Assembly: GCA_035713825.1 (NCBI GenBank)
Contig: DASTMX010000110.1
Coordinates: 1,010 to 65,009, forward strand
Length of the DNA: 64,000 bases
Direction: 5' to 3'
DNA from: Candidatus Udaeobacter sp.
Lineage (GTDB): Bacteria > Verrucomicrobiota > Verrucomicrobiia > Chthoniobacterales > UBA10450
This document shows positions 721-11,493 of the stretch, piece after piece. Position 1 is the first letter of the stretch. Every line of letters begins with the position of its first letter. Under the pieces are notes generated by a model. The model made no database searches, was not told where the DNA came from, and was given only the letters and a program-made list of their open reading frames with translations. The position numbers were made by a program, and so were the translations under genes.

Positions 721-2031
721 ATGCCATATAAAGATGTCGCTCCGCCCGCAGGTGAAAAAATTACCCGAACCGATAAACTGAATGTACCGGATCAACCGGT
801 CATTCCGTTTATCCGTGGAGATGGCACCGGGCCGGATATCTGGGCCGCGAGCGAGCGCGTGTTCGACGCGGCGGTCAAAAAAGCATACGGCGGCAAAAAA
901 AAGATCGCGTGGTTCGAAGTCTACGCCGGGCAGGCAGCAAAGGACAAATTCGGGGAATGGCTCCCGGAAGACACGGTCGAAGCGTTCCGCGAATACCACG
1001 TCGGAATTAAAGGTCCGCTAACCACGCCTGTAGGCGGGGGAATTCGTTCGCTCAACGTCGCGTTGCGGCAGCTCCTCGATCTCTTCGTTTGCCTGCGCCC
1101 GGTGCAGTACTTTGATGGCGTCCCCTCGCCTCTCCGGCATCCCGAGAAAGTTAATATGGTGATCTTCCGCGAAAACACGGAGGACATCTACGCGGGCATC
1201 GAATTCGCCGCCGGCACGCCGGAGGCACAAAAGGTTCTCGATTTTCTGAAGAAGGATTTCCCGCAGCAGTATGAGAAGATCCGCTTCGGAACAAAACAGA
1301 AAGCCGCCGAATTTTGGAAAAAGGTGGGCGTATCAGAAAAGGACGACGTTCAGGTCGGGATCGGCATCAAACCGGTCAGTCGTTCCGGCACCGTTCGCCT
1401 CGTGCATAGCGCGATCTCGTACGCGATCGCGAACCAGCGCAAAAGCGTCACCCTGGTTCACAAGGGGAACATCATGAAATTCACCGAGGGCGCGTTCCGC
1501 GATTGGGGCTATGACGTGGCGAAGCAATATTTCGGCGCGAAAGAGATCGATGGTGGACCATGGTGCGAGATTCCCATGGGCAAACCGGGTGCCGGCATTG
1601 TGATCAAAGATGCCATTGCTGATAACGCGCTTCAGCAATTCTTGCTGCGGCCAGCCGATTACGACGTGATCGCCACGCTGAATCTGAATGGCGATTACAT
1701 GAGCGATGCGCTGGCGGCGGAGGTGGGCGGAATTGGAATCGCGCCCGGTGGAAATATCAATTACATCACCGGTCACGCAGTATTCGAGGCGACCCATGGT
1801 ACTGCGCCGAAATATACAAACCAGGACAAGGTGAATCCGGGGTCGGTGATTTTGTCGGGCGAAATGATGTTCCGCTACCTTGGCTGGACAGAGGCTGCCG
1901 ATTTGATTTTGAAAGGTCTAAAGGGCGCGATTGCAAGCAAACGCGTCACGTACGATTTCGCGCGTCTGATGGATGGCGCCACCGAGATCAAGTGTTCGCA
2001 ATTTGGCGATAACGTAATCGAGCACATGTGA
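721..2031 (+). CDS. icd: NADP-dependent isocitrate dehydrogenase
   Basis: From ATG 721 the product ([41 protein letters not shown]...) matches the E. coli Icd-type N-terminus and carries the [10 protein letters not shown] metal/substrate motif along a full-length ~436-aa protein. The track ORF opens at 673, but that extension is not Icd-like. Confidence 0.95.
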
Positions 2032-2141
2032 GGAGCATAAGGAGGCGGAATCGAAAAGTGATAAATGATCCAATCATGAAGAAACGCCGCGATTCGTTAC
2101 ATCGGCGCACCGTTAAATCGGGTTTGCGATTCCACGATCCA

Positions 2142-4427
2142 ATGAGGCCACGATTCAACGTGGCGAAGCCATTCGTCATTTGTTTGCTCCTGGGTTTGGT
2201 AACAGCAGCCGCCAGCGTCCACGCGGAAAAGCGCAACATCACTGAAAAAGACCTGTTCGATTTCGTCTGGATAGGAGATCCGCAGGTTTCACCGGACGGA
2301 TCGCATGTAGCGTTCGTGCGCGTGACCGTGAATGAGAAGCAAGATGGTTATAATACCTCCATCTGGAGCGTTCCAGTTGCTGGCGGTGAAGAACCTCGTC
2401 AGCTCACAAAAGGTAACCATGATTCCACGCCACGCTGGTCGCCAGATGGAAAATTTTTGCTTTTCCTGCGCGCGAACGAAAAGGATGGCAAGCCCGAGTC
2501 TACACAATTAGCTCTGATCCCGATGGCGGGAGGAGATTCATTCGTCTTTACGGATCTACCGAAAGGAGCAGGAAATCCAAGCTGGTCGCCGGATGGAAAA
2601 ACGATCGCGTTCACGAGCGATACAAACGCGGAAGATCTGGCCAAACAGGAAAAGAAAAAAGCAAAAGAAGAGGAACCAAAGAAAGCTGGTGGCGGGAACG
2701 CTGCCCCGGCCGCCGAGGAACACGAGAGCGACGTTCGCGTGATCACGCATGCTATCTATCGGCAGGATAACGAAGGTTACATTGATCCAAAGCATCCCAC
2801 ACACATCTGGCTGGTCACCGCGCCGGGAGCAGCCGGTGAAAAGGTGAAACCGCGCCAGCTCACAAAGGGGCGATTTGATGAAGAGAGCGCCACCTGGTCC
2901 AAGGACGGGTCGCAGATTTATTTCACCTCGGATCGCAACGACGAACCGTACTATGAACTGCCCAGGACAGATGTTTATTCAGTGGCGGCAGCCGGCGGCG
3001 AACCCGTAAAAATTACAACACTCGATCTGCAGGTCGGAGGATTCGGCCCCGGCGGAGGCGCACTGTCGCTGAGTCCCGATGGCAAACAAGTTGCGTTTAG
3101 CGCATCCACTACGCGCCCGATCACTTCCTACGCGCAGCCCGATCTTTGGGTGCTCGACCTTTCGCCGAACGCGAAACCGCGCAATCTGACTGCGAACTTT
3201 GATTTTGATGTGCCCGGGTTCGTAATTGGGGACAGCTCAGCGCCCCGGGCAGGTGGACAAAACAAGCCGATCTGGACGCCCGATGGCAAAGGTCTCATCG
3301 CCGTTTACTCCAAGGAAGGCAAAGCGACTCTCGCGCTCTTCGATCTGCCTGCGGCCCAGGACGCCGATCTCGGGAAGGGCGGGGTACACGATCTAACGTC
3401 TGGAAATCAGGGGGTCATGAGTTTTCGCACCTCCCCTGACACTTCGAAGTTGATTTACGTGGTTTCAACGCCAACGCGTATCAACGATATTTTTGTACTA
3501 GACCGCGCAACCGGAAATGCGCAGCCGCAGCAATTGACCCACGTTAATGATGAACTGTTCTCCAAGCTGAACCTGACCGAGCCGGAAGAAGTCTGGTACA
3601 ACAGCTTTGACGGCAAACGCATCGAAGCGTGGTTGCAGAAGCCGCCAAACTTCGATTCCCACAAAAAATATCCGCTTATCCTGAACATTCATGGCGGACC
3701 CCACGTGGCGTACGGTCATATCTTCGATCACGAATTTCAGTGGATGGCAGCCAAAGGTTATGTGGTCCTTTATCCGAATCCGCGTGGCAGTACCACTTAC
3801 GGCCAGGAATTTGGAAACATTATTCAGTACAATTATCCAGGAGACGACTACAAAGACCTGATGGCAGGCGTGGATGACGCAATCAAGCGTGGTTATATCG
3901 ATGAGAAAAAGCTGGGCGTGACTGGAGGCAGTGGCGGCGGTTTGCTGACGAACTGGGTGGTAGGCCAAACAAACCGCTTTGCCGCGGCGGTAGCACAACG
4001 CGACATCGCGAATTGGGAAAATTGGTGGTACACGGGTGATTTCACTCTCTTTCAACCCTCGTGGTTCAAGGGGCCGCCCTTTGAAGATCCGCAGGAGTAT
4101 CGAGCGCGTTCGCCAATCAATTATATCAAGAACGTGACGACACCATTGATGCTGGTCCTTGGCGAAGCCGATTATCGAACGCCACCTGGTGCCGGCGGCG
4201 AACAAATGTTTCGCGCATTAAAGTTCCGCAAGGTTCCCACTGTGATGGTGCGTTTCCCCAACGAATCGCACGAGCTCTCGCGCTCCGGTCAGCCGTGGCA
4301 CCGGGTCGAACGCCTGCAGCATATTGTTGGCTGGTTCGACAAGTGGCTAATGGGTGCGCACAAGCCGGAGTACGATGTGGCGCCACCAGAAGAAACGCCC
4401 GCCAAGAAGGGCGCAACTGCCAGATGA
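2142..4427 (+). CDS. S9 family serine peptidase (prolyl oligopeptidase/acylaminoacyl-peptidase type) with N-terminal TolB-like beta-propeller
   Basis: Repeated SPDG/WSPDGK propeller motifs. The C-terminal hydrolase has the VTGGSGGG nucleophile elbow, GEADYRTPP Asp and NESHELS His. A canonical signal peptide (MRPRFNVAKPFVICLLLGLVTAAASVHA) appears if the start is ATG 2142; 2028 and 2076 are alternatives. Confidence 0.85.
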   Translation: MRPRFNVAKPFVICLLLGLVTAAASVHAEKRNITEKDLFDFVWIGDPQVSPDGSHVAFVRVTVNEKQDGYNTSIWSVPVAGGEEPRQLTKGNHDSTPRWSPDGKFLLFLRANEKDGKPESTQLALIPMAGGDSFVFTDLPKGAGNPSWSPDGKTIAFTSDTNAEDLAKQEKKKAKEEEPKKAGGGNAAPAAEEHESDVRVITHAIYRQDNEGYIDPKHPTHIWLVTAPGAAGEKVKPRQLTKGRFDEESATWSKDGSQIYFTSDRNDEPYYELPRTDVYSVAAAGGEPVKITTLDLQVGGFGPGGGALSLSPDGKQVAFSASTTRPITSYAQPDLWVLDLSPNAKPRNLTANFDFDVPGFVIGDSSAPRAGGQNKPIWTPDGKGLIAVYSKEGKATLALFDLPAAQDADLGKGGVHDLTSGNQGVMSFRTSPDTSKLIYVVSTPTRINDIFVLDRATGNAQPQQLTHVNDELFSKLNLTEPEEVWYNSFDGKRIEAWLQKPPNFDSHKKYPLILNIHGGPHVAYGHIFDHEFQWMAAKGYVVLYPNPRGSTTYGQEFGNIIQYNYPGDDYKDLMAGVDDAIKRGYIDEKKLGVTGGSGGGLLTNWVVGQTNRFAAAVAQRDIANWENWWYTGDFTLFQPSWFKGPPFEDPQEYRARSPINYIKNVTTPLMLVLGEADYRTPPGAGGEQMFRALKFRKVPTVMVRFPNESHELSRSGQPWHRVERLQHIVGWFDKWLMGAHKPEYDVAPPEETPAKKGATAR

Positions 4428-4440
4428 CCACGCTCCGGGA

Positions 4441-5919
4441 TCACTGACACTGAATTACTTTGGGCGAATTCGTAAGCTCCTGATTCGTCCCCGCAACGCG
4501 AAGATGGATGACGTGTGAGTGGTGATCTTTGAGTTGCGTCGGCGTCGGAACGTGAAAGCCATGCCGGCCGTTTCCGTAGCCCGCACCGACGAGGTCCTGC
4601 CGGAATTTATCAGCCGGAAACTTCATTAGAAACTTGTCCCCATCCCAAAGTTCGACATCAACAGTTGCGTCCGGCTGGTTTTTGTCCCAAACCCATCCCT
4701 GAATCTCATCACAATGGACCTGCTCGACGTCGCCCGCACGTTGTAGAAGCGGAGCTGACCCGATGCGTCCTGAAAAAATCAGCAGACCGAAGCAAACGCA
4801 TTGGAAAGTAACGAACGTAGAAATCGTCCGCGACAGCAGACCTTCGCGCCAATACTGGTGTGACTTGTTCCAGCGGGAGAAGATATGAAAGGTCGAAAGC
4901 AACGCCGCCTGATATAGTCCATACACAAGATAGTGAACCTGGGGCCCGTGCCAGAGACCCATGAGCCCGAACGTCAGAAAGTAGCCTGCAATTGGGGCGA
5001 CTTCCTTATGCTCAAACCATTTGCCTCGCATCGCGGCATACAGGAAACGCATGTAAACATGGTCTCGGAACCAAAATGAAAGAGTGATGTGCCAGCGATT
5101 CCAGAAATCGCGGATGTTCCTGGCAAGAAAGGGTCGATCAAAATTTTCCGGCGTGTGGACGCCGAAAAGATAACTCAGGGCAATGGCAAAAGCGCTGTAT
5201 CCGGCAAAATCAAAAAAAAGATAGAAGCTGTACGCGTACATGTAACTGATCAACGCAGCGAAATTTCCACTGCTGGCCGCGCGATCCAGCCAGTACTGTT
5301 TAATCAGCGCGGCAAGAATGAACTTATAAAAGAATCCCCGGAAAATTCGGTGCACCGCGCCGTCCAGATCGACAAGAAATTCAGCGCGGGTTCGCTTTTT
5401 TCTCCATTCGCCGGCGAAGCGCTGGTAGCGGTCAATTGGACCGGCTGAAACTGTTGGAAAGAAAAAAAGAAACATCAGGAAATCGAGTGTCCGGGGCTTG
5501 GCGATGACTTTGTCGCGCAGGCAAAATACGACATCCAGTGCCCGGAATGTGATGTATGAGATTCCGAGAAAACCAAACTCGCTTTTCGGCGAAATAACGG
5601 GAAAAAACTTGGATGCGGCCAATGGCAGTATGCCTGCTGCGATCGCAACGTAAAACGGCCAACCTGCCCGTGCCCCGACTTTTGCGAACACGCATACAGT
5701 AGCCCACTGCCAGACGGCGAAACCAATGGCGATCCAGATCTCACGTACCGGGAAATTTGGCCGGACATTTAATAATCCGTGATACTGCACGACGAGCATC
5801 CCGGCAGTGACGAGCGTCGCCCAGCGCCAGCCTGCTCTTCCAAACAAACCGAGAAAGAGCGTTGGAATTACTGCGTAAAGCAGTAACCCGAAATAGGTGA
5901 AATCGGCGTAGGGAATCAC
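4441..5919 (-). CDS. dltB: DltB-type MBOAT (D-alanyl transfer protein) with extra C-terminal soluble domain
   Basis: Polytopic membrane protein with the NIRDFWNRWHITLSFWFRDHVYMRF block, which is the DltB-style MBOAT catalytic His region. The GTG start overlaps the dltA stop (GTGA). At 492 aa it is longer than the ~400 aa typical of DltB. Confidence 0.85.
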   Translation of the reverse strand: MIPYADFTYFGLLLYAVIPTLFLGLFGRAGWRWATLVTAGMLVVQYHGLLNVRPNFPVREIWIAIGFAVWQWATVCVFAKVGARAGWPFYVAIAAGILPLAASKFFPVISPKSEFGFLGISYITFRALDVVFCLRDKVIAKPRTLDFLMFLFFFPTVSAGPIDRYQRFAGEWRKKRTRAEFLVDLDGAVHRIFRGFFYKFILAALIKQYWLDRAASSGNFAALISYMYAYSFYLFFDFAGYSAFAIALSYLFGVHTPENFDRPFLARNIRDFWNRWHITLSFWFRDHVYMRFLYAAMRGKWFEHKEVAPIAGYFLTFGLMGLWHGPQVHYLVYGLYQAALLSTFHIFSRWNKSHQYWREGLLSRTISTFVTFQCVCFGLLIFSGRIGSAPLLQRAGDVEQVHCDEIQGWVWDKNQPDATVDVELWDGDKFLMKFPADKFRQDLVGAGYGNGRHGFHVPTPTQLKDHHSHVIHLRVAGTNQELTNSPKVIQCQ

Positions 5920-7373
5920 AGCGACCGGGCCAGCCGCGCTCGATCGACTTTGCCGTTCGCCGTCATCGGAAAAGAATCGCGAAAAACGAATTTGCGCGGC
6001 ACCATGTACACTGGCAGTCGCTCCGACAGTTGTCGCCGAAGCAACTGTGTTAATTCAAAGTCTGATTCCGCGGTTCGGCTGCTGAGCACTACGAAGGCGG
6101 CAAGAGAGTGCGGCGCGCCGTTTTTAAGCAACGGTGTAACTACTGCGGCCCTTATTTCAGACAAACCGAGAAGGTTGGCTTCGACATCGCCAAGCTCGAT
6201 ACGATAACCGCTCAGCTTGACTTGCGAATCCAGGCGTCCCTCAAAAAAAAGCAGGTCGTCACGCACTCGTCCCTGGTCGCCGGTCCGATAAGCGCGTCGG
6301 CCGCGATACTCGAAGAAGTTCGTCGAGGTCAGGTCGGGGCGACCGAGATAGCCCGGGCTGACATTTGGTCCTGCGATGACAATTTCACCTCGCTTGTTTG
6401 CCGGCAAAACATCGCCAGCTTCATTAGCCACGAAAACTTCGGTTTCGGGCATGGCGCGTCCGACCGGTAATGCCGCATACTTTTCCAAAATAAAATGGTC
6501 TATGCGTATTGAGGTAGTAGCCACAGTCGCCTCAGTCGGCCCGTACATGTTCCATACCTCGGCTTGTGGAAAGCGCTCCAGTAAATGAGCTGCGGTTTGC
6601 GCGGCAAGCGTTTCTCCGCAAAAAAGAAAACGGCGAATGCGTGGCAGCATCGCCTCTGCAAATTTTTCTTCGACCAGGCACATTTGCGCGAACGAGGGCG
6701 TAGAGACCCAGGTGGTGGTACCGGAACTTCCAAGGGCGTGAAAAAGCATTTTCGGATTCGCCACGAGATCGCGGCTAATGCTGAAGAGAGTGCCTCCCGT
6801 GGAAAGGCTGCAATAGAGATCCATCACGGAGAGATCGAACGAGAATGGCGCCGTGTTTAGGAAAGTCTCGCTGAAAGGCAGGAACTTTTGTTGTTCAACC
6901 ATCCACGTAACGAAATGCTGCACACATTCTCGAGTGATGATCACCCCCTTCGGGTCGCCCGTGCTGCCGCTGGTGAACAAAATGTAAAATGGATCATCGC
7001 GCCGGGTGGCAATGACAGGAGCAGCCGCGCCAGAACCTGAAAGTTCCATGACATCGTTCGGCCTGAGAAGCAATGCGGGCCGCGCGATTGTGAGAATCTT
7101 GTCGAGCCGTTGCTGCGGCAATGCGGTGTCGAGTGGAATATAGGGCTTGCGGGATTTTGCAGCTGCCAGAAAAGCGATGAGTAAACCAGGCTCTCGATGT
7201 CCCAGCACAGCGATCGGAGTAGGAGCCTCGCCGAAGCGCGTTATGAGATGCGCGGCGAGTGCGTTCGAACGCTGGCGAAGCTCGCCATAGGTGAGTCTTT
7301 GGTCTCCACTGATGTGAGCGATTGCGTTGGGAGCCGTTAAAGCCCAGTGGTCGATTTGTTCGATGAGATTCAC
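5916..7373 (-). CDS. dltA: D-alanine--D-alanyl carrier protein ligase (adenylation enzyme)
   Basis: Stand-alone adenylation domain of 485 aa with FTSGSTGDPKGV, YRTGD, GRLDSQVKLSGYRIELGDVE and ANGKVDR core motifs. Size and context (dltC, dltB, dltD) fit DltA. The GTG start lies directly after the dltX stop. Confidence 0.85.
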   Translation of the reverse strand: MNLIEQIDHWALTAPNAIAHISGDQRLTYGELRQRSNALAAHLITRFGEAPTPIAVLGHREPGLLIAFLAAAKSRKPYIPLDTALPQQRLDKILTIARPALLLRPNDVMELSGSGAAAPVIATRRDDPFYILFTSGSTGDPKGVIITRECVQHFVTWMVEQQKFLPFSETFLNTAPFSFDLSVMDLYCSLSTGGTLFSISRDLVANPKMLFHALGSSGTTTWVSTPSFAQMCLVEEKFAEAMLPRIRRFLFCGETLAAQTAAHLLERFPQAEVWNMYGPTEATVATTSIRIDHFILEKYAALPVGRAMPETEVFVANEAGDVLPANKRGEIVIAGPNVSPGYLGRPDLTSTNFFEYRGRRAYRTGDQGRVRDDLLFFEGRLDSQVKLSGYRIELGDVEANLLGLSEIRAAVVTPLLKNGAPHSLAAFVVLSSRTAESDFELTQLLRRQLSERLPVYMVPRKFVFRDSFPMTANGKVDRARLARSL

Positions 7374-7511
7374 TCAAAACCCCTGATAAATGAACGGGGG
7401 CGTGGAAAAGTCACCCCGGCCGTACATGACGATTAAGCCGGCAATAACAACCAGGTAATACAGAATCAGCAACGCTCGCCAAAGCGCCGGGTGTGCCCTG
7501 ATCCGACTCAC
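7374..7511 (-). CDS. dltX: DltX-like small membrane peptide (45 aa), not in ORF track
   Basis: Manual translation of the minus strand gives (M)SRIRAHPALWRALLILYYLVVIAGLIVMYGRGDFSTPPFIYQGF*. It has one hydrophobic helix plus the C-terminal F-I-Y-x-x-F motif characteristic of DltX. The GTG start sits inside the ATGTGA end of dltC, and its TGA abuts the dltA GTG. The ORF exactly fills the dltC-dltA gap. Confidence 0.68.
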   Translation of the reverse strand: MSRIRAHPALWRALLILYYLVVIAGLIVMYGRGDFSTPPFIYQGF

Positions 7512-7756
7512 ATGCTGACCTGGGTCCGGCTCTCAAGATCGGCAATGATCTTGCGCGGTGTCGCCCAATTTTCGCGCTCGAACTCCGCCGGCGAAACTTT
7601 AACGCCGAATTCTTCCTCGATTCTTACCATCAATTCTACAGTTTTGATCGAGTCCAACAGCTGACAATCATAGAGGGGTAGCTCGAGGTTGGCCCGCACC
7701 TCGTTGGTCTCAGTGACCGATTCCAGCAGTTGTAACGCTTGCTCGCGAACGGACAT
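7508..7756 (-). CDS. dltC: D-alanyl carrier protein
   Basis: An 82-aa acidic carrier protein. QLLDSIKTVELMVRIEEEFG (phosphopantetheine Ser) and EFERENWATPRKII match the B. subtilis DltC pattern (LLDSFGTVELL...EFDRDVWNTPNNIV). Confidence 0.88.
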   Translation of the reverse strand: MSVREQALQLLESVTETNEVRANLELPLYDCQLLDSIKTVELMVRIEEEFGVKVSPAEFERENWATPRKIIADLESRTQVSM

Positions 7757-7875
7757 TTTGGAGGGTATGCCCTCAAGTAAGGCTCTGCATGTGAGCCAGG
7801 ATATGAAGATGTTGTAGTGCGTTGCCCTACAACATCAGTGAACAATCAATAGCCGCGCGCTAACGCGAATCCCGA

Positions 7876-9060
7876 TCAACTATGGGGGCCGCCCTGGAAA
7901 AACTCATCAAGGGCGCGATCGTAATAGATCCAGCCTTTTGCAGTAAGGTGACTTTGGTGGCGATAAAGGAAAGCCGGATCTTCGTCGTGCCCCTTAAACT
8001 CGATCAACGCAAAATGGTATCGTTGCGCGAGTGCGCGCAACTTCTTGTAGTAGGTTTCCCGGGCTTCTCGTGAAATGCCTGTCTGGTCGTAAAATTGTCC
8101 GGCAATCGGCATGCTCAGAAGGAGTGGCCGCGCATGAACGCTCGCCAAGGTACGGAGCAGTAACTCGAATTCTATCCATCCCTCGCCCTCGTCCATGCGG
8201 GTTCGGAAGGCTACGTCACGATTATCAGGAGCTGGCTGTGGGTCTGCGCTACGGCGTATGTCGTCTTCGTCAGAGCTTTTATATTCATCAGCTTTCGCAA
8301 TGAGCTTCGACCAATCGACTGTTGTCCGCTGCTGTTGTGGAGCAGGCTTAATCTTGTGCAGGATGTGACCAAGCGCTGCGAAATGATCCTGCATCTCCAA
8401 TGCTGCGTTTTGTACTTTTCCTATTGGCCAGATGGCGCAGAAGAGAACACGATCAAACCATCTATGAGAAGCAAGTCGCCTGACTGCGAATCCCAATAAC
8501 GGATTTTTTTTCAGTGTACTGGGAGATTTTAGCATCCGTGAAGCAATCTGCCGCTTCAACTTGAAGTCGAGGGCAGCCCCAAACACCATTTCACTCGCCG
8601 CCATGAGGGAAAAATTTGCATCATAAGCTTTGCGCGCAGGATGTGCCGTTAATCCCGGCGACAGCGAGATGGCAAGTTTTTTACCGCGCAAATCCGATCC
8701 GAGTGCAGCAATCTTCTGCGAAATGATCAACGGTGGCATGCCTCCAGCGCCGACGGGCGAAACCTGAAAACCTGTCGGCGCCGTGCGAAAAAATATGTTT
8801 GCCCGCTCCGGCACGGGAACGGCCGTGAGTTCGGAACTGCCGTAAAACGGCAAAACGTTCGGTGCACGAGCCGCGGCGCGTTGAAAAGCCAGGCCCTGGT
8901 TTTTGAGCGGGAACAACTCGGGGGCGGTCGCGTGAACGGTGGCGTGTTCGCGATGGACGGCTACCATTCCTGCGACGAGCAAAACGACCGCGACAAAGCC
9001 GGAAGCAACTGTCCCGGAAAACAAATGTGGCAGCGGTTTCCCGGTGCGAGCACTTGCCAT
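7876..9060 (-). CDS. dltD: DltD-like protein (membrane-anchored SGNH-type acyltransferase/esterase)
   Basis: About 394 aa from ATG 9060. It has one N-terminal TM anchor (GFVAVVLLVAGMVAV) followed by the FYGSSEL catalytic-Ser motif typical of DltD. The track ORF opens at 9117. Confidence 0.8.
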   Translation of the reverse strand: MASARTGKPLPHLFSGTVASGFVAVVLLVAGMVAVHREHATVHATAPELFPLKNQGLAFQRAAARAPNVLPFYGSSELTAVPVPERANIFFRTAPTGFQVSPVGAGGMPPLIISQKIAALGSDLRGKKLAISLSPGLTAHPARKAYDANFSLMAASEMVFGAALDFKLKRQIASRMLKSPSTLKKNPLLGFAVRRLASHRWFDRVLFCAIWPIGKVQNAALEMQDHFAALGHILHKIKPAPQQQRTTVDWSKLIAKADEYKSSDEDDIRRSADPQPAPDNRDVAFRTRMDEGEGWIEFELLLRTLASVHARPLLLSMPIAGQFYDQTGISREARETYYKKLRALAQRYHFALIEFKGHDEDPAFLYRHQSHLTAKGWIYYDRALDEFFQGGPHS

Positions 9061-9305
9061 GGTACAGCCGATATTCAAATGTTTACGGTCAGCAACTCTT
9101 ATACCGTTGCCACACATGTCATTTTTTCCACGCCGGCCGCTTTTTTTCTCGTATTACCGCGCCCTTCGTTTTTCTCCCAATGTCAGCGGTTTGCGTATTC
9201 GCGCAGTGCGCGGTAACGAACCGGCCAATGATCGATTTTCGCCGGCAAATCCCACGCAATCAACCTCCCGCGCGAAACACCCGTTCATCTGCTAAATTCG
9301 GGGAT

Positions 9306-10022
9306 ATGGCAGAGACGTCCGGTTACCAGCGAAGCGAGACACCGGCAGTTCCGTGGAGCGACGTGGTCCGTTTCATTCGTCAGCTGAGTCATGATCTGCG
9401 CAACCATCTGAATGCAATCGAACTGCAGTCAGCCTACATCGATGAATTGGAACAAGAAGATGAGCTCAAGGTTGAGATCAAGCGTTTAAAGAAAATGATT
9501 TCTGGAATGACGTCCACGTTGCAATCGCTTTCGAGGGCCGTGGGCGACATCAAACTCAATCCGATCTCGTATCAAGCCAGCGATTTGCTGGAAGATTTGC
9601 GCAGGAAAATCGATCGTGATTTCTCAGCGGAAAATGCGGCGATCAGCTGGGATCTTAACGCTGACGCAATGTTGAACGTTGATCCTCAGCTTTTACAGGA
9701 AGCATTTACCGAGATTTTTGCCAATGCGTTGCGGCACGCGGACGGCAGAAGCGATCTTGCTGTGACCGCCAAGATGAACGAAGGGCAATTGCTCATCGCC
9801 ATCCGTGAGGCAAAGACCCGATTTGAACTCTCCGTCAATAACTGGGGACGCGAACCGCTTCAGAACGTCAGCCAGGGCCACTACGCTCTTGGCCTAAATC
9901 GAGTCCGCGCTATCGTAGAAGCTCACGGTGGCAAAATATATGCTCAATTTGATCCGAAAACTTCGATGCTCACGACAAGGATCGTTCTGCCCGTTTCAAG
10001 TGCCGCTTCGAAAGATGGTTGA
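9306..10022 (+). CDS. cytoplasmic histidine kinase without recognisable sensor or TM domain (238 aa)
   Basis: The H-box LSHDLRNHLNAIELQ lies ~30 aa from ATG 9306. The ATPase has an N-box (EIFANALRHA) and a G-box (GLNRVRAIVEAHGGKI). The upstream part of the track ORF (9027-9305) is Cys/Phe-rich and unlikely to be coding. Confidence 0.75.
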   Translation: MAETSGYQRSETPAVPWSDVVRFIRQLSHDLRNHLNAIELQSAYIDELEQEDELKVEIKRLKKMISGMTSTLQSLSRAVGDIKLNPISYQASDLLEDLRRKIDRDFSAENAAISWDLNADAMLNVDPQLLQEAFTEIFANALRHADGRSDLAVTAKMNEGQLLIAIREAKTRFELSVNNWGREPLQNVSQGHYALGLNRVRAIVEAHGGKIYAQFDPKTSMLTTRIVLPVSSAASKDG

Positions 10023-10098
10023 GCCACACCATTTCCGGCTTTTAGAAAAACTGAAATCCGCTGTTCGTGCATAACACGAGCGACGTGAACATGCAGGG

Positions 10099-11493
10099 AT
10101 GAAAACCGCGAACTATCGCGTCCTTATCATTGACGACGAGCGCCCGGTGCTCATGACACTCGAGGCGTTGCTGACCCGCCATGGTTATCAGGTGGACACA
10201 GCATCCACAGCCTCGCAAGGACTCAAGCTATTACGATCAAAACCGCCCAACCTGGTTTTGCTCGATCTGCAGTTGCCGGACGTCGATGGACTGGAAACCC
10301 TGGATCGAATCAAGGCGGAGGTGCCCCAGATACAGGTCATCATTTTGACCGCCCACGACTCGCTGCACAACGCCATCGAATCAATCAAGCGCGGGGCATA
10401 CCACTTCATCAGCAAGCCCTACGCGCCGGAAGAGCTTCGTAGCCTGATGGAGAAAGCATTGGAAAAACAGTTCCTTTTACAAGAAGCCGAAGAACTCCGT
10501 GAGAAGACAGAGGAACTCGAGCAGCGATTGAAATTGGTGGAGGCGCGGCCTTCGCTCATTTTCAAAAGCAAACCGATGCAGGAAATTGAGGAATTAATCA
10601 ATGCGATGGCACCGTCAGACGCCAACGCGCTCATACTGGGTGAGAGCGGCGTGGGCAAAGAAGTAATTGCTAACGCCATTCACGCGCGAAGCCGGCGGGC
10701 GGAAAAGCCAATGGTGAAGCTCAATTGCGCGGCGTTTCCGCAAACGATGATTGAAGGCGAGCTTTTCGGTTACGTGAAAGGTGCATTCACTGGAGCGACG
10801 CAGGATTTCCCCGGAATGATTGCGGCGGCCGATGGTGGCACGCTTTTTCTAGACGAGATATCGGATATGCCGGCAGATCTGCAGACGCGCTTTTTGCGCG
10901 TTCTGCAAGAACGCGAATACCGGCCTCTTGGAAGCACACAGACGATGAAAGCAGATTTCCGTGCGATCGCTTCGACTAATCGCCCGATTCCCCAGGCCCT
11001 CGCGGAAAATCGGCTGCGTTCCGATTTGTACTACCGGTTAAATACATTTCAAATTGAAGTGCCGCCGCTTCGAAAGCGGAAACAAGATATCCCGCCTTTG
11101 ATTGCGGCGTTCGTGAGACAGTTTGCTCAGCAGCTCGGCAAATCCGAGCCTGAGCTTTCGCCGGAAGCCTTTCAAAAATTGCTCGATTATGCGTGGCCGG
11201 GAAATGTGCGCGAGCTGCAAAACGCGATTGAATATGCCGTTGTTCTGGCCCGCCAGGGAACGATTGACGTGAAAGAGCTGCCCGCGGAAATACAGTTGCC
11301 AACCGCGCTGCAACAAACTGAGCTCGCGGCCCTGCCGCGCACGGGCGTGCAGAGCCTCGACGACGTCGAAAGAACCGCCATTATTCAAGCACTGGCAGAA
11401 TGTCATGGAAACAAGAAGCGGGCAGCCGAGCTTCTCGGCATTCAACGGCCAACGCTTTACAACAAGATGAAGCGCTACGCCATCGAGCTGTAA
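10099..11493 (+). CDS. sigma-54-dependent response regulator (NtrC family: REC-AAA+-Fis HTH)
   Basis: Receiver domain (LIIDDE...LLDLQLPDVDG). AAA+ domain with Walker A GESGVGKE, the GAFTGA sigma-54 contact loop (KGAFTGAT) and Walker B LFLDEI. C-terminal HTH (KKRAAELLGIQRPTLYNKMKR). Confidence 0.92.
   Translation: MKTANYRVLIIDDERPVLMTLEALLTRHGYQVDTASTASQGLKLLRSKPPNLVLLDLQLPDVDGLETLDRIKAEVPQIQVIILTAHDSLHNAIESIKRGAYHFISKPYAPEELRSLMEKALEKQFLLQEAEELREKTEELEQRLKLVEARPSLIFKSKPMQEIEELINAMAPSDANALILGESGVGKEVIANAIHARSRRAEKPMVKLNCAAFPQTMIEGELFGYVKGAFTGATQDFPGMIAAADGGTLFLDEISDMPADLQTRFLRVLQEREYRPLGSTQTMKADFRAIASTNRPIPQALAENRLRSDLYYRLNTFQIEVPPLRKRKQDIPPLIAAFVRQFAQQLGKSEPELSPEAFQKLLDYAWPGNVRELQNAIEYAVVLARQGTIDVKELPAEIQLPTALQQTELAALPRTGVQSLDDVERTAIIQALAECHGNKKRAAELLGIQRPTLYNKMKRYAIEL

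Follow-up and report, generated by a model that had tools for sequence, protein, structure and literature searches.

A DltX homologue encoded between dltC and dltA in Candidatus Udaeobacter sp.

In the 64-kb stretch of Candidatus Udaeobacter sp. DNA analyzed here (hereafter, the window), a 45-codon ORF between dltC and dltA encodes, as judged by profile comparison, a homologue of DltX. The ORF is very likely the dltX gene of a dltD-dltC-dltX-dltA-dltB operon whose product works by the Firmicute-type D-alanine (D-Ala) relay through Tyr42. Since the key residues of DltA, DltB and DltC are in place, as are the catalytic Ser and His of DltD, a relay through Tyr42 is the most likely function.

Results

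The ORF fills the gap between dltC and dltA

The coordinates of dltX, its neighbors and the sites discussed below are compiled in Table 1. A minus-strand ORF of 45 codons had been proposed from the letters of the DNA alone, and its translation (VSRIRAHPALWRALLILYYLVVIAGLIVMYGRGDFSTPPFIYQGF, followed by the stop codon) was reproduced residue for residue. The GTG start of dltX and the end of dltC (its last codon and TGA stop) have 4 nt (GTGA) in common, while the TGA stop of dltX abuts the GTG start of dltA at position 7373 with zero spacer. Thus, the 134-nt gap between dltC and dltA is filled exactly, as the original prediction had it. Since the GTG codon is the first start codon past an in-frame stop, a longer version of the ORF is impossible. 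The frame length by itself is not significant, since a 44-codon frame stayed open in 22% of shuffles of the region; arbitrary 132-nt windows drawn from the 64-kb window were open in 34% of cases. The pattern F.Y..F, on the other hand, precedes only one of the 3629 six-frame stop codons of the window, namely that of dltX.

Other contents of the gap were considered as well. No promoter-like or terminator-like site was detected between dltC and dltA by pattern scan, and no Rfam family matched at E ≤ 1 within 4300–9400, so none lies in the gap. An RNA element, promoter or terminator as the filling of the gap was rejected on this basis. The GC content is uniform across the dlt region and equal to that of the surroundings; thus, the operon is not a recent island, and its recent horizontal acquisition was rejected.

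Table 1. Positions of dltX, the dlt operon and associated sites in the window.
Feature	Position	Strand	Remarks
dltX	7374..7511	minus	45 codons, GTG start, TGA stop; single-pass membrane microprotein (predicted)
dltX start codon GTG	7511-7509	minus
dltX stop codon TGA	7376-7374	minus
Predicted TM helix, codons 8-31	7419..7490	minus	AF2, hydropathy; holds invariant Y18, Y19, L26, Y30
FIYQGF hexapeptide (FxYxxF acyl-shuttle motif), codons 40-45	7377..7394	minus	right before stop
Tyr42 codon	7386-7388	minus
Tryptic peptide GDFSTPPFIYQGF of the dltX product			diagnostic for 7374-7511
dltC, D-alanyl carrier protein, 82 aa	7508..7756	minus	NF003464 84.2 bits (cut-off 68); TIGR01688 72.7 (cut-off 52.35)
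dltA, D-alanine--carrier protein ligase, 485 aa	5916..7373	minus	NF003417 545.7 bits (cut-off 476)
dltB, MBOAT acyltransferase, 492 aa	4441..5919	minus	TIGR04091 423.2 bits (cut-off 375), residues 3-385
dltD, SGNH-like transferase, N-terminal TM helix	7876..9117 (longest ORF)	minus	Pfam DltD 135.5 bits (cut-off 22.7)
Perfect 10-bp inverted repeat GATGTTGTAG-N9-CTACAACATC	about 7812-7840	minus	in 119-nt dltD-dltC spacer
Weak terminator-like hairpin, separate from inverted repeat	7868-7853	minus	pattern scan
Terminator-like GC-rich hairpin and T-run, just past dltB stop	4395..4414	minus	pattern scan, consensus match only
Histidine kinase and sigma-54-dependent response regulator	9027-11493	plus	divergent, beside dltD

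Conservation and coding status of dltX

A scan of one genome per species detected dltX relatives in 154 species-representative genomes. The best 80 of these 154 loci were fetched; nearly all of them derive from MAGs of Chthoniobacterales (Udaeobacter, Chthoniobacter), i.e., the evidence for the clade consists of MAG sequences. The order (D)-C-X-A-(B), with the ORF between dltC and dltA, was present in all 80 fetched loci. In 65 of 81 loci, the overlap between the dltX start and the dltC stop was 4 nt long, and the dltX stop usually lay 0–4 nt from the dltA start in the same set. Four of the contigs (loci L019, L032, L051 and L065) are binned as Dormiibacterota, Limnocylindria, Alphaproteobacteria and Nitrospirota, respectively; they carry the same operon with DltX 64–82% identical. 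Most likely, these are mis-binned Verrucomicrobial contigs and not cases of cross-phylum occurrence.

Substitution patterns were determined for 60 distinct 45-codon orthologues. The pN/pS ratio, pooled over pairs of related sequences that are not independent of each other, was 0.265 in the dltX frame; the two alternative frames gave 1.29 and 1.53. Over the final 16 codons, pN/pS was as low as 0.058 at a pS of 0.63. All 44 third codon positions were variable, and so were 20 second positions; the codons of the terminal motif varied synonymously (TAT/TAC, TTT/TTC). Since synonymous sites are near saturation, the true pN/pS is, if anything, lower. Frame-specific constraint together with conservation in other genomes places dltX far beyond a chance ORF. 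By its substitution pattern, dltX codes for a protein and is subject to strong purifying selection. The conservation of the ORF, its frame and the terminal motif (F[VI]YQGF in the clade) with synonymous-biased substitution, which had been named as a check, was borne out in the 80 loci and 60 orthologues.

The probability that the gap is an untranslated spacer, with a chance frame that ends like DltX by coincidence, is practically negligible: the openness of the frame in shuffles, an upstream Shine-Dalgarno-like 4-mer recognizable in only 26 of the 60 orthologues and a Pfam DltX score below the gathering cut-off would fit it, but it was rejected on the frame-specific pN/pS, which counts as refuting (0.27 overall and 0.06 in the tail versus 1.3–1.5 out of frame), and is further opposed by the length, start/stop junctions and position kept in 80 loci, by 13 invariant columns among 66 proteins, by a significant profile–profile match to DltX and by a gap free of Rfam families, promoters and terminators.

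Peptide architecture and similarity to DltX

With 45 aa, the dltX product is within the size of 40–50 aa of a microprotein with a single TM helix. The Kyte-Doolittle hydropathy maximum (2.42) was found at residues 13–31, and AlphaFold2 (AF2) predicted one helix at residues 8–31 (pLDDT about 90), followed by a flexible 14-residue tail. R3, R5 and R12 lie on the N-terminal side of the helix, and the FIYQGF motif is followed by the stop codon. Thus, a short basic N-terminus, one TM helix and a C-terminal FIYQGF were present as originally described. Residues Y18, Y19, L26, Y30, G31, G33, F35, S36, P39, F40, Y42, Q43 and F45 were invariant in the clade (66/66).

Similarity to DltX was analyzed at the level of profiles. 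The window peptide matched the Pfam DltX model PF12459 with an E-value of 8.5e-5 and 22.4 bits, i.e., 2.6 bits below the gathering cut-off of 25 bits, while 65 of 66 clade members matched the model at E ≤ 0.01 (best E 1.6e-8). The scores on PF12459 were 83.6 bits for a Firmicute DltX, 39.2 bits for an Anaerolineaceae member and 19–24 bits for Udaeobacter-type proteins. For comparison, a set of Firmicute DltX proteins was collected by a search with a seed sequence, which yielded 19 hits, among them NCBI-named DltX of Oenococcus, Streptococcus suis, Lactococcus and Weissella; the 17 NCBI-named hits were aligned, and all 17 end in FIYNEF. When 66 Verrucomicrobial sequences were compared to these 17 proteins by hhalign, a probability of 93% and an E-value of 3.5e-7 were obtained over 42 ungapped columns that extend to the C-terminus. 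In this alignment, F40/Y42/F45 of the Udaeobacter clade pair with F43/Y45/F48 of the Firmicute FIYNEF. The miss of the Pfam cut-off is marginal and is outweighed by the profile–profile result.

Other resources contributed little. NCBIfam has no DltX model, and neither the window peptide nor Firmicute DltX nor the NCBI-named Verrucomicrobial DltX had a relevant match there; a weak match to YknW (E 0.006, 16 bits versus a cut-off of 110) was dismissed as TM-helix noise. A PDB sequence search with the clade profile returned TM-helix noise only and no DltX chain, and PADLOC gave no hit. The defining features of DltX that can be examined in silico were all found, except for a score above the Pfam cut-off. 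By PF12459, hhalign and operon context, which agree, the ORF product is a DltX homologue inside a complete dlt operon, as had been predicted. The search against the DltX profile HMM proposed along with that prediction thus returned the expected match, with the reservation that the peptide's own score lies under the cut-off.

The dlt operon and its partner enzymes

The genes dltD-dltC-dltX-dltA-dltB all lie on the minus strand; the junctions dltC/dltX/dltA/dltB overlap or abut, with an overlap of 4 nt between dltA and dltB. The key residues of the partner proteins are largely conserved. First, DltC shows the phosphopantetheine-serine motif LLDSI in its translation. Second, DltA aligns from residue 1 with DltA of B. 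cereus (3FCC; E 4.6e-137), and the motifs FSFDLSVMD (Asp197) and FLFCGE (Cys269) are conserved; its score against the strict equivalog model TIGR01734 was 527.7, i.e., under the cut-off of 559.85. Third, DltB aligns with 6BUG (E 2.5e-65), with conservation of the MBOAT His motifs FWNRWH..SFWFRD and GLWHG. Fourth, the catalytic-Ser motif FYGSSEL of DltD aligns with FFGSSEL of 6PFX, and the C-terminal His is kept.

DltD scored 135.6 bits against the equivalog model TIGR04092, which is under the cut-off of 150. Residues 387–392 read HQSHLT in place of the Firmicute D-T-I-H-L-G, so that the catalytic His is kept and the Asp position is not. In 36 relatives, this element is HQSH or HKSH; others have NLDH or FLDH, and in the NLDH form the Asp is shifted. 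About 90 nt of the longest dltD ORF lie within the divergent histidine-kinase ORF (9027–10022, plus strand); since orthologue alignments begin at DltD residue 18–20, the dltD start is probably the ATG at 9060 (MASARTGKPLPHLFSG). About 15 close Udaeobacter relatives, including loci L005, L006, L008, L009, L011 and L013, carry tandem dltD paralogs (dltD1-dltD2-dltC-dltX-dltA-dltB) at roughly 1150–3700 in locus coordinates. Only one dltD is present in the window; its closest counterpart is the upstream one of the two copies (81% identity to copy 1 of L006). The length of the dltD-dltC spacer is very variable among relatives, and the inverted repeat located there may be a remnant of a lost second dltD or a processing/attenuation site.

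On the far side of the operon, the hairpin past dltB is likely the operon end. A kinase homologous to the divergent one was found upstream of the dlt operon in 25 of 80 related loci, and the kinase/response regulator pair may regulate the operon. The other neighbors are housekeeping genes (isocitrate dehydrogenase, S9 peptidase, QueC/QueF, NlpC/P60, M20 peptidase, permease and SMC). Among the neighbors of the operon examined in the window, no teichoic-acid genes or other clues to an acceptor were found.

A C-terminal extension of DltB

The MBOAT core of DltB spans residues 1 to about 390 and is followed by a soluble extension of ~100 aa (about 4444–4750, minus strand), which gives a protein of 492 aa, whereas DltB has a length of about 406 aa in some relatives. 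Among Chthoniobacterales, 42 distinct DltBs (loci L004–L079) share the extension, with the pattern C..I.GW.WD...V.V.L.D...A..FR.DL..AGYGNGRHAF...DG..H.I.LR. Cys residues flank it, the C-terminal one being nearly invariant. Pfam and PDB sequence searches gave no match for the extension, and a single-sequence AF2 model was all-beta at low confidence (pLDDT 55.5). The extension is hydrophilic and ends in ...SPKVIQCQ, without a TM helix and without FxYxxF; a fused acyl shuttle of the PatA type was therefore rejected. As a speculation, it might be a periplasmic acceptor-binding domain.

Distribution and annotation of YQGF-type DltX

The 45-aa protein is contained in NCBI nr in identical form (HEU0274653.1) as 'hypothetical protein VFQ83_09020' of Candidatus Udaeobacter sp., encoded on a MAG contig of 78 kb. 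The original prediction had described the ORF as untracked and probably missed by standard annotation; this is refuted by the entry, in which the functional name alone is absent. Relatives of 78–91% identity are named 'teichoic acid D-Ala incorporation-associated protein DltX' of a Verrucomicrobia bacterium. Since the Udaeobacter branch scores 19–24 bits against a cut-off of 25 bits, near-identical proteins are named either DltX or hypothetical. YQGF-type sequences are too sparsely represented in the PF12459 seed.

When 1.84 billion cluster representatives were searched with the profile, 221 clusters at 50% identity (E ≤ 1e-3) were retrieved, nearly all of 45–60 aa with an F[VI]YQGF end. A word-seeded search that started from distant members yielded 1114 clusters at 90% identity, most of them with a precomputed PF12459 hit. 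Of 149 more distant cluster representatives, nearly all retained Tyr42 and both flanking Phe. Named examples of the YQGF type come from Verrucomicrobia, Chthoniobacteraceae and one Anaerolineaceae MAG, the cluster of which is named DltX, and the C-X-A-B arrangement was also seen in two other metagenome assemblies. By these comparisons, the window peptide is an ordinary Udaeobacter-branch member of a large environmental 'YQGF-type' DltX subfamily, from which the window copy shows no substantive difference.

This subfamily is already captured by Pfam and NCBI, and dltX outside Firmicutes is already present in databases and literature. The dlt genes are known in the Gram-negative genera Dickeya and Pectobacterium (PMC5541007), the operon of Dickeya being written dltXABCD (bioRxiv 10.1101/568105). 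A paper of 2026 still presents the DltX mechanism as a Gram-positive trait (PMC13653941), and our literature search returned no publication dealing with dlt genes of Verrucomicrobia or Udaeobacter. The novelty of DltX outside Firmicutes that was implied at the outset does not hold, as the Dickeya dltXABCD and the NCBI-named DltX of Verrucomicrobia and Anaerolineaceae precede it. The further claim that the DltX relay is conserved far outside Firmicutes stands for the motif and for the key residues of the partners, whereas the chemistry would follow by analogy.

Discussion

For Firmicutes, PMC12148441 (citing Schultz et al. 2023) and PMC13653941 describe that DltB takes D-Ala from DltC and places it on the FxYxxF motif of DltX, at the invariant Tyr, and that DltX then delivers D-Ala to the catalytic Ser of DltD. 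In Candidatus Udaeobacter, translation of dltX would be coupled to that of dltC via the 4-nt overlap and would lead straight into dltA. The basic N-terminus of DltX would be cytoplasmic and the 14-residue tail ending in FIYQGF periplasmic. DltA would load D-alanine on DltC, and the MBOAT protein DltB would pass the D-alanyl group across the membrane to the hydroxyl of Tyr42, presumably as an ester. The tail would then swing to DltD and hand D-Ala over to the Ser of the GSSEL motif, and DltD would esterify a putative envelope acceptor with it. A classical teichoic acid is an improbable candidate for this acceptor in Verrucomicrobiota. The phylum is not known for teichoic acids.

A more specific version of this relay is conceivable, if rather doubtful: dltDCXAB of Chthoniobacterales may be a variant D-alanyl relay with a non-teichoic acceptor, for instance LPS, peptidoglycan or a different glycan of the periplasm or outer membrane. 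The clade features, i.e., the tail YGRGDFSTPPF[VI]YQGF, the Cys-flanked beta-rich domain of DltB, the Asp-less DltD and the often tandem second dltD, would then be adaptations to this new acceptor.

It is improbable that the DltX homologue serves a DltB-DltD complex only in its structure or assembly, with acyl transfer straight from DltB to DltD or to the acceptor and no Tyr42 ester. Two differences between the tail and the tested FIYNEF, the absence of the canonical Asp from DltD and the extra C-terminal domain of the clade's DltB would fit such a role. However, Tyr42 and the flanking Phe are invariant in all 66 clade members and kept in nearly all of the distant representatives, constraint on dltX is strongest in its last 16 codons, which fits a catalytic shuttle better than a mere anchor, and the same motif is the acyl carrier in Firmicutes according to the sources above.

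A DltX-type relay with a cargo other than D-alanine, i.e., another amino acid or acyl group, appears highly improbable. The score of DltA under the TIGR01734 cut-off would be compatible with it, but DltA passes NF003417 and aligns with its B. cereus counterpart with the positions of Asp197 and Cys269 kept, and DltC passes both DltC equivalog models. Cys269 of DltA selects the D-enantiomer.

Compared to DltX of Firmicutes (S. aureus, S. thermophilus, B. thuringiensis, L. plantarum; PF12459), the Verrucomicrobial protein is alike in size (41–50 aa in Firmicutes), in its basic N-terminus, its one N-terminal TM helix and a short tail predicted to be extracytoplasmic, in the FxYxxF with invariant Tyr at the extreme C-terminus, which is part of an ungapped end-to-end alignment, and in gene linkage to dltA, dltB, dltC and dltD. 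The initial statement that Firmicute DltX are of similar size with a FIYxxF end is in line with this size range and with the FIYNEF of the aligned set. The two differ in the tail, which is ...GGxHFIYNEF in Firmicutes versus the clade-specific sequence given above, in gene order (X-A-B-C-D with X first versus D-C-X-A-B with X third), in the score on PF12459 (about 84 bits for a Firmicute member, far above the Udaeobacter type) and in the host, which is a Verrucomicrobium here.

The Gram-negative soft-rot Enterobacterales Dickeya and Pectobacterium likewise possess a dlt operon including dltX outside Firmicutes; they belong to another phylum, and the order is written X-A-B-C-D there versus D-C-X-A-B here. 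Their dlt genes are thought to modify a non-teichoic envelope component, e.g., LPS, and to protect against cationic peptides (PMC5541007; bioRxiv 10.1101/568105). PatA and related bacterial MBOATs use this FxYxxF hexapeptide, with its catalytic Tyr, to carry an acyl group from the MBOAT to its SGNH partner (PMC12148441). In the PatA type, the motif is located on two additional TM helices that form a fusion with the MBOAT, and acyl-CoA is the donor, whereas the Udaeobacter motif belongs to a separate microprotein, for which a carrier protein would be the donor.

The present analysis provides a functional label, DltX, for a protein that is 'hypothetical' in GenBank. The Pfam DltX model operates at its detection limit for the Udaeobacter branch, and annotation is inconsistent there as a result. 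In Chthoniobacterales, the full Dlt machinery, with the Tyr-bearing shuttle peptide as part of it, is under strong constraint and stably maintained; it also occurs in a large set of environmental bacteria, as represented by the clusters at 90% identity. Candidatus Udaeobacter is among the most abundant soil bacteria, and if dltDCXAB were indeed a variant relay with a non-teichoic acceptor, it could add to the tolerance of Candidatus Udaeobacter to cationic antimicrobials.
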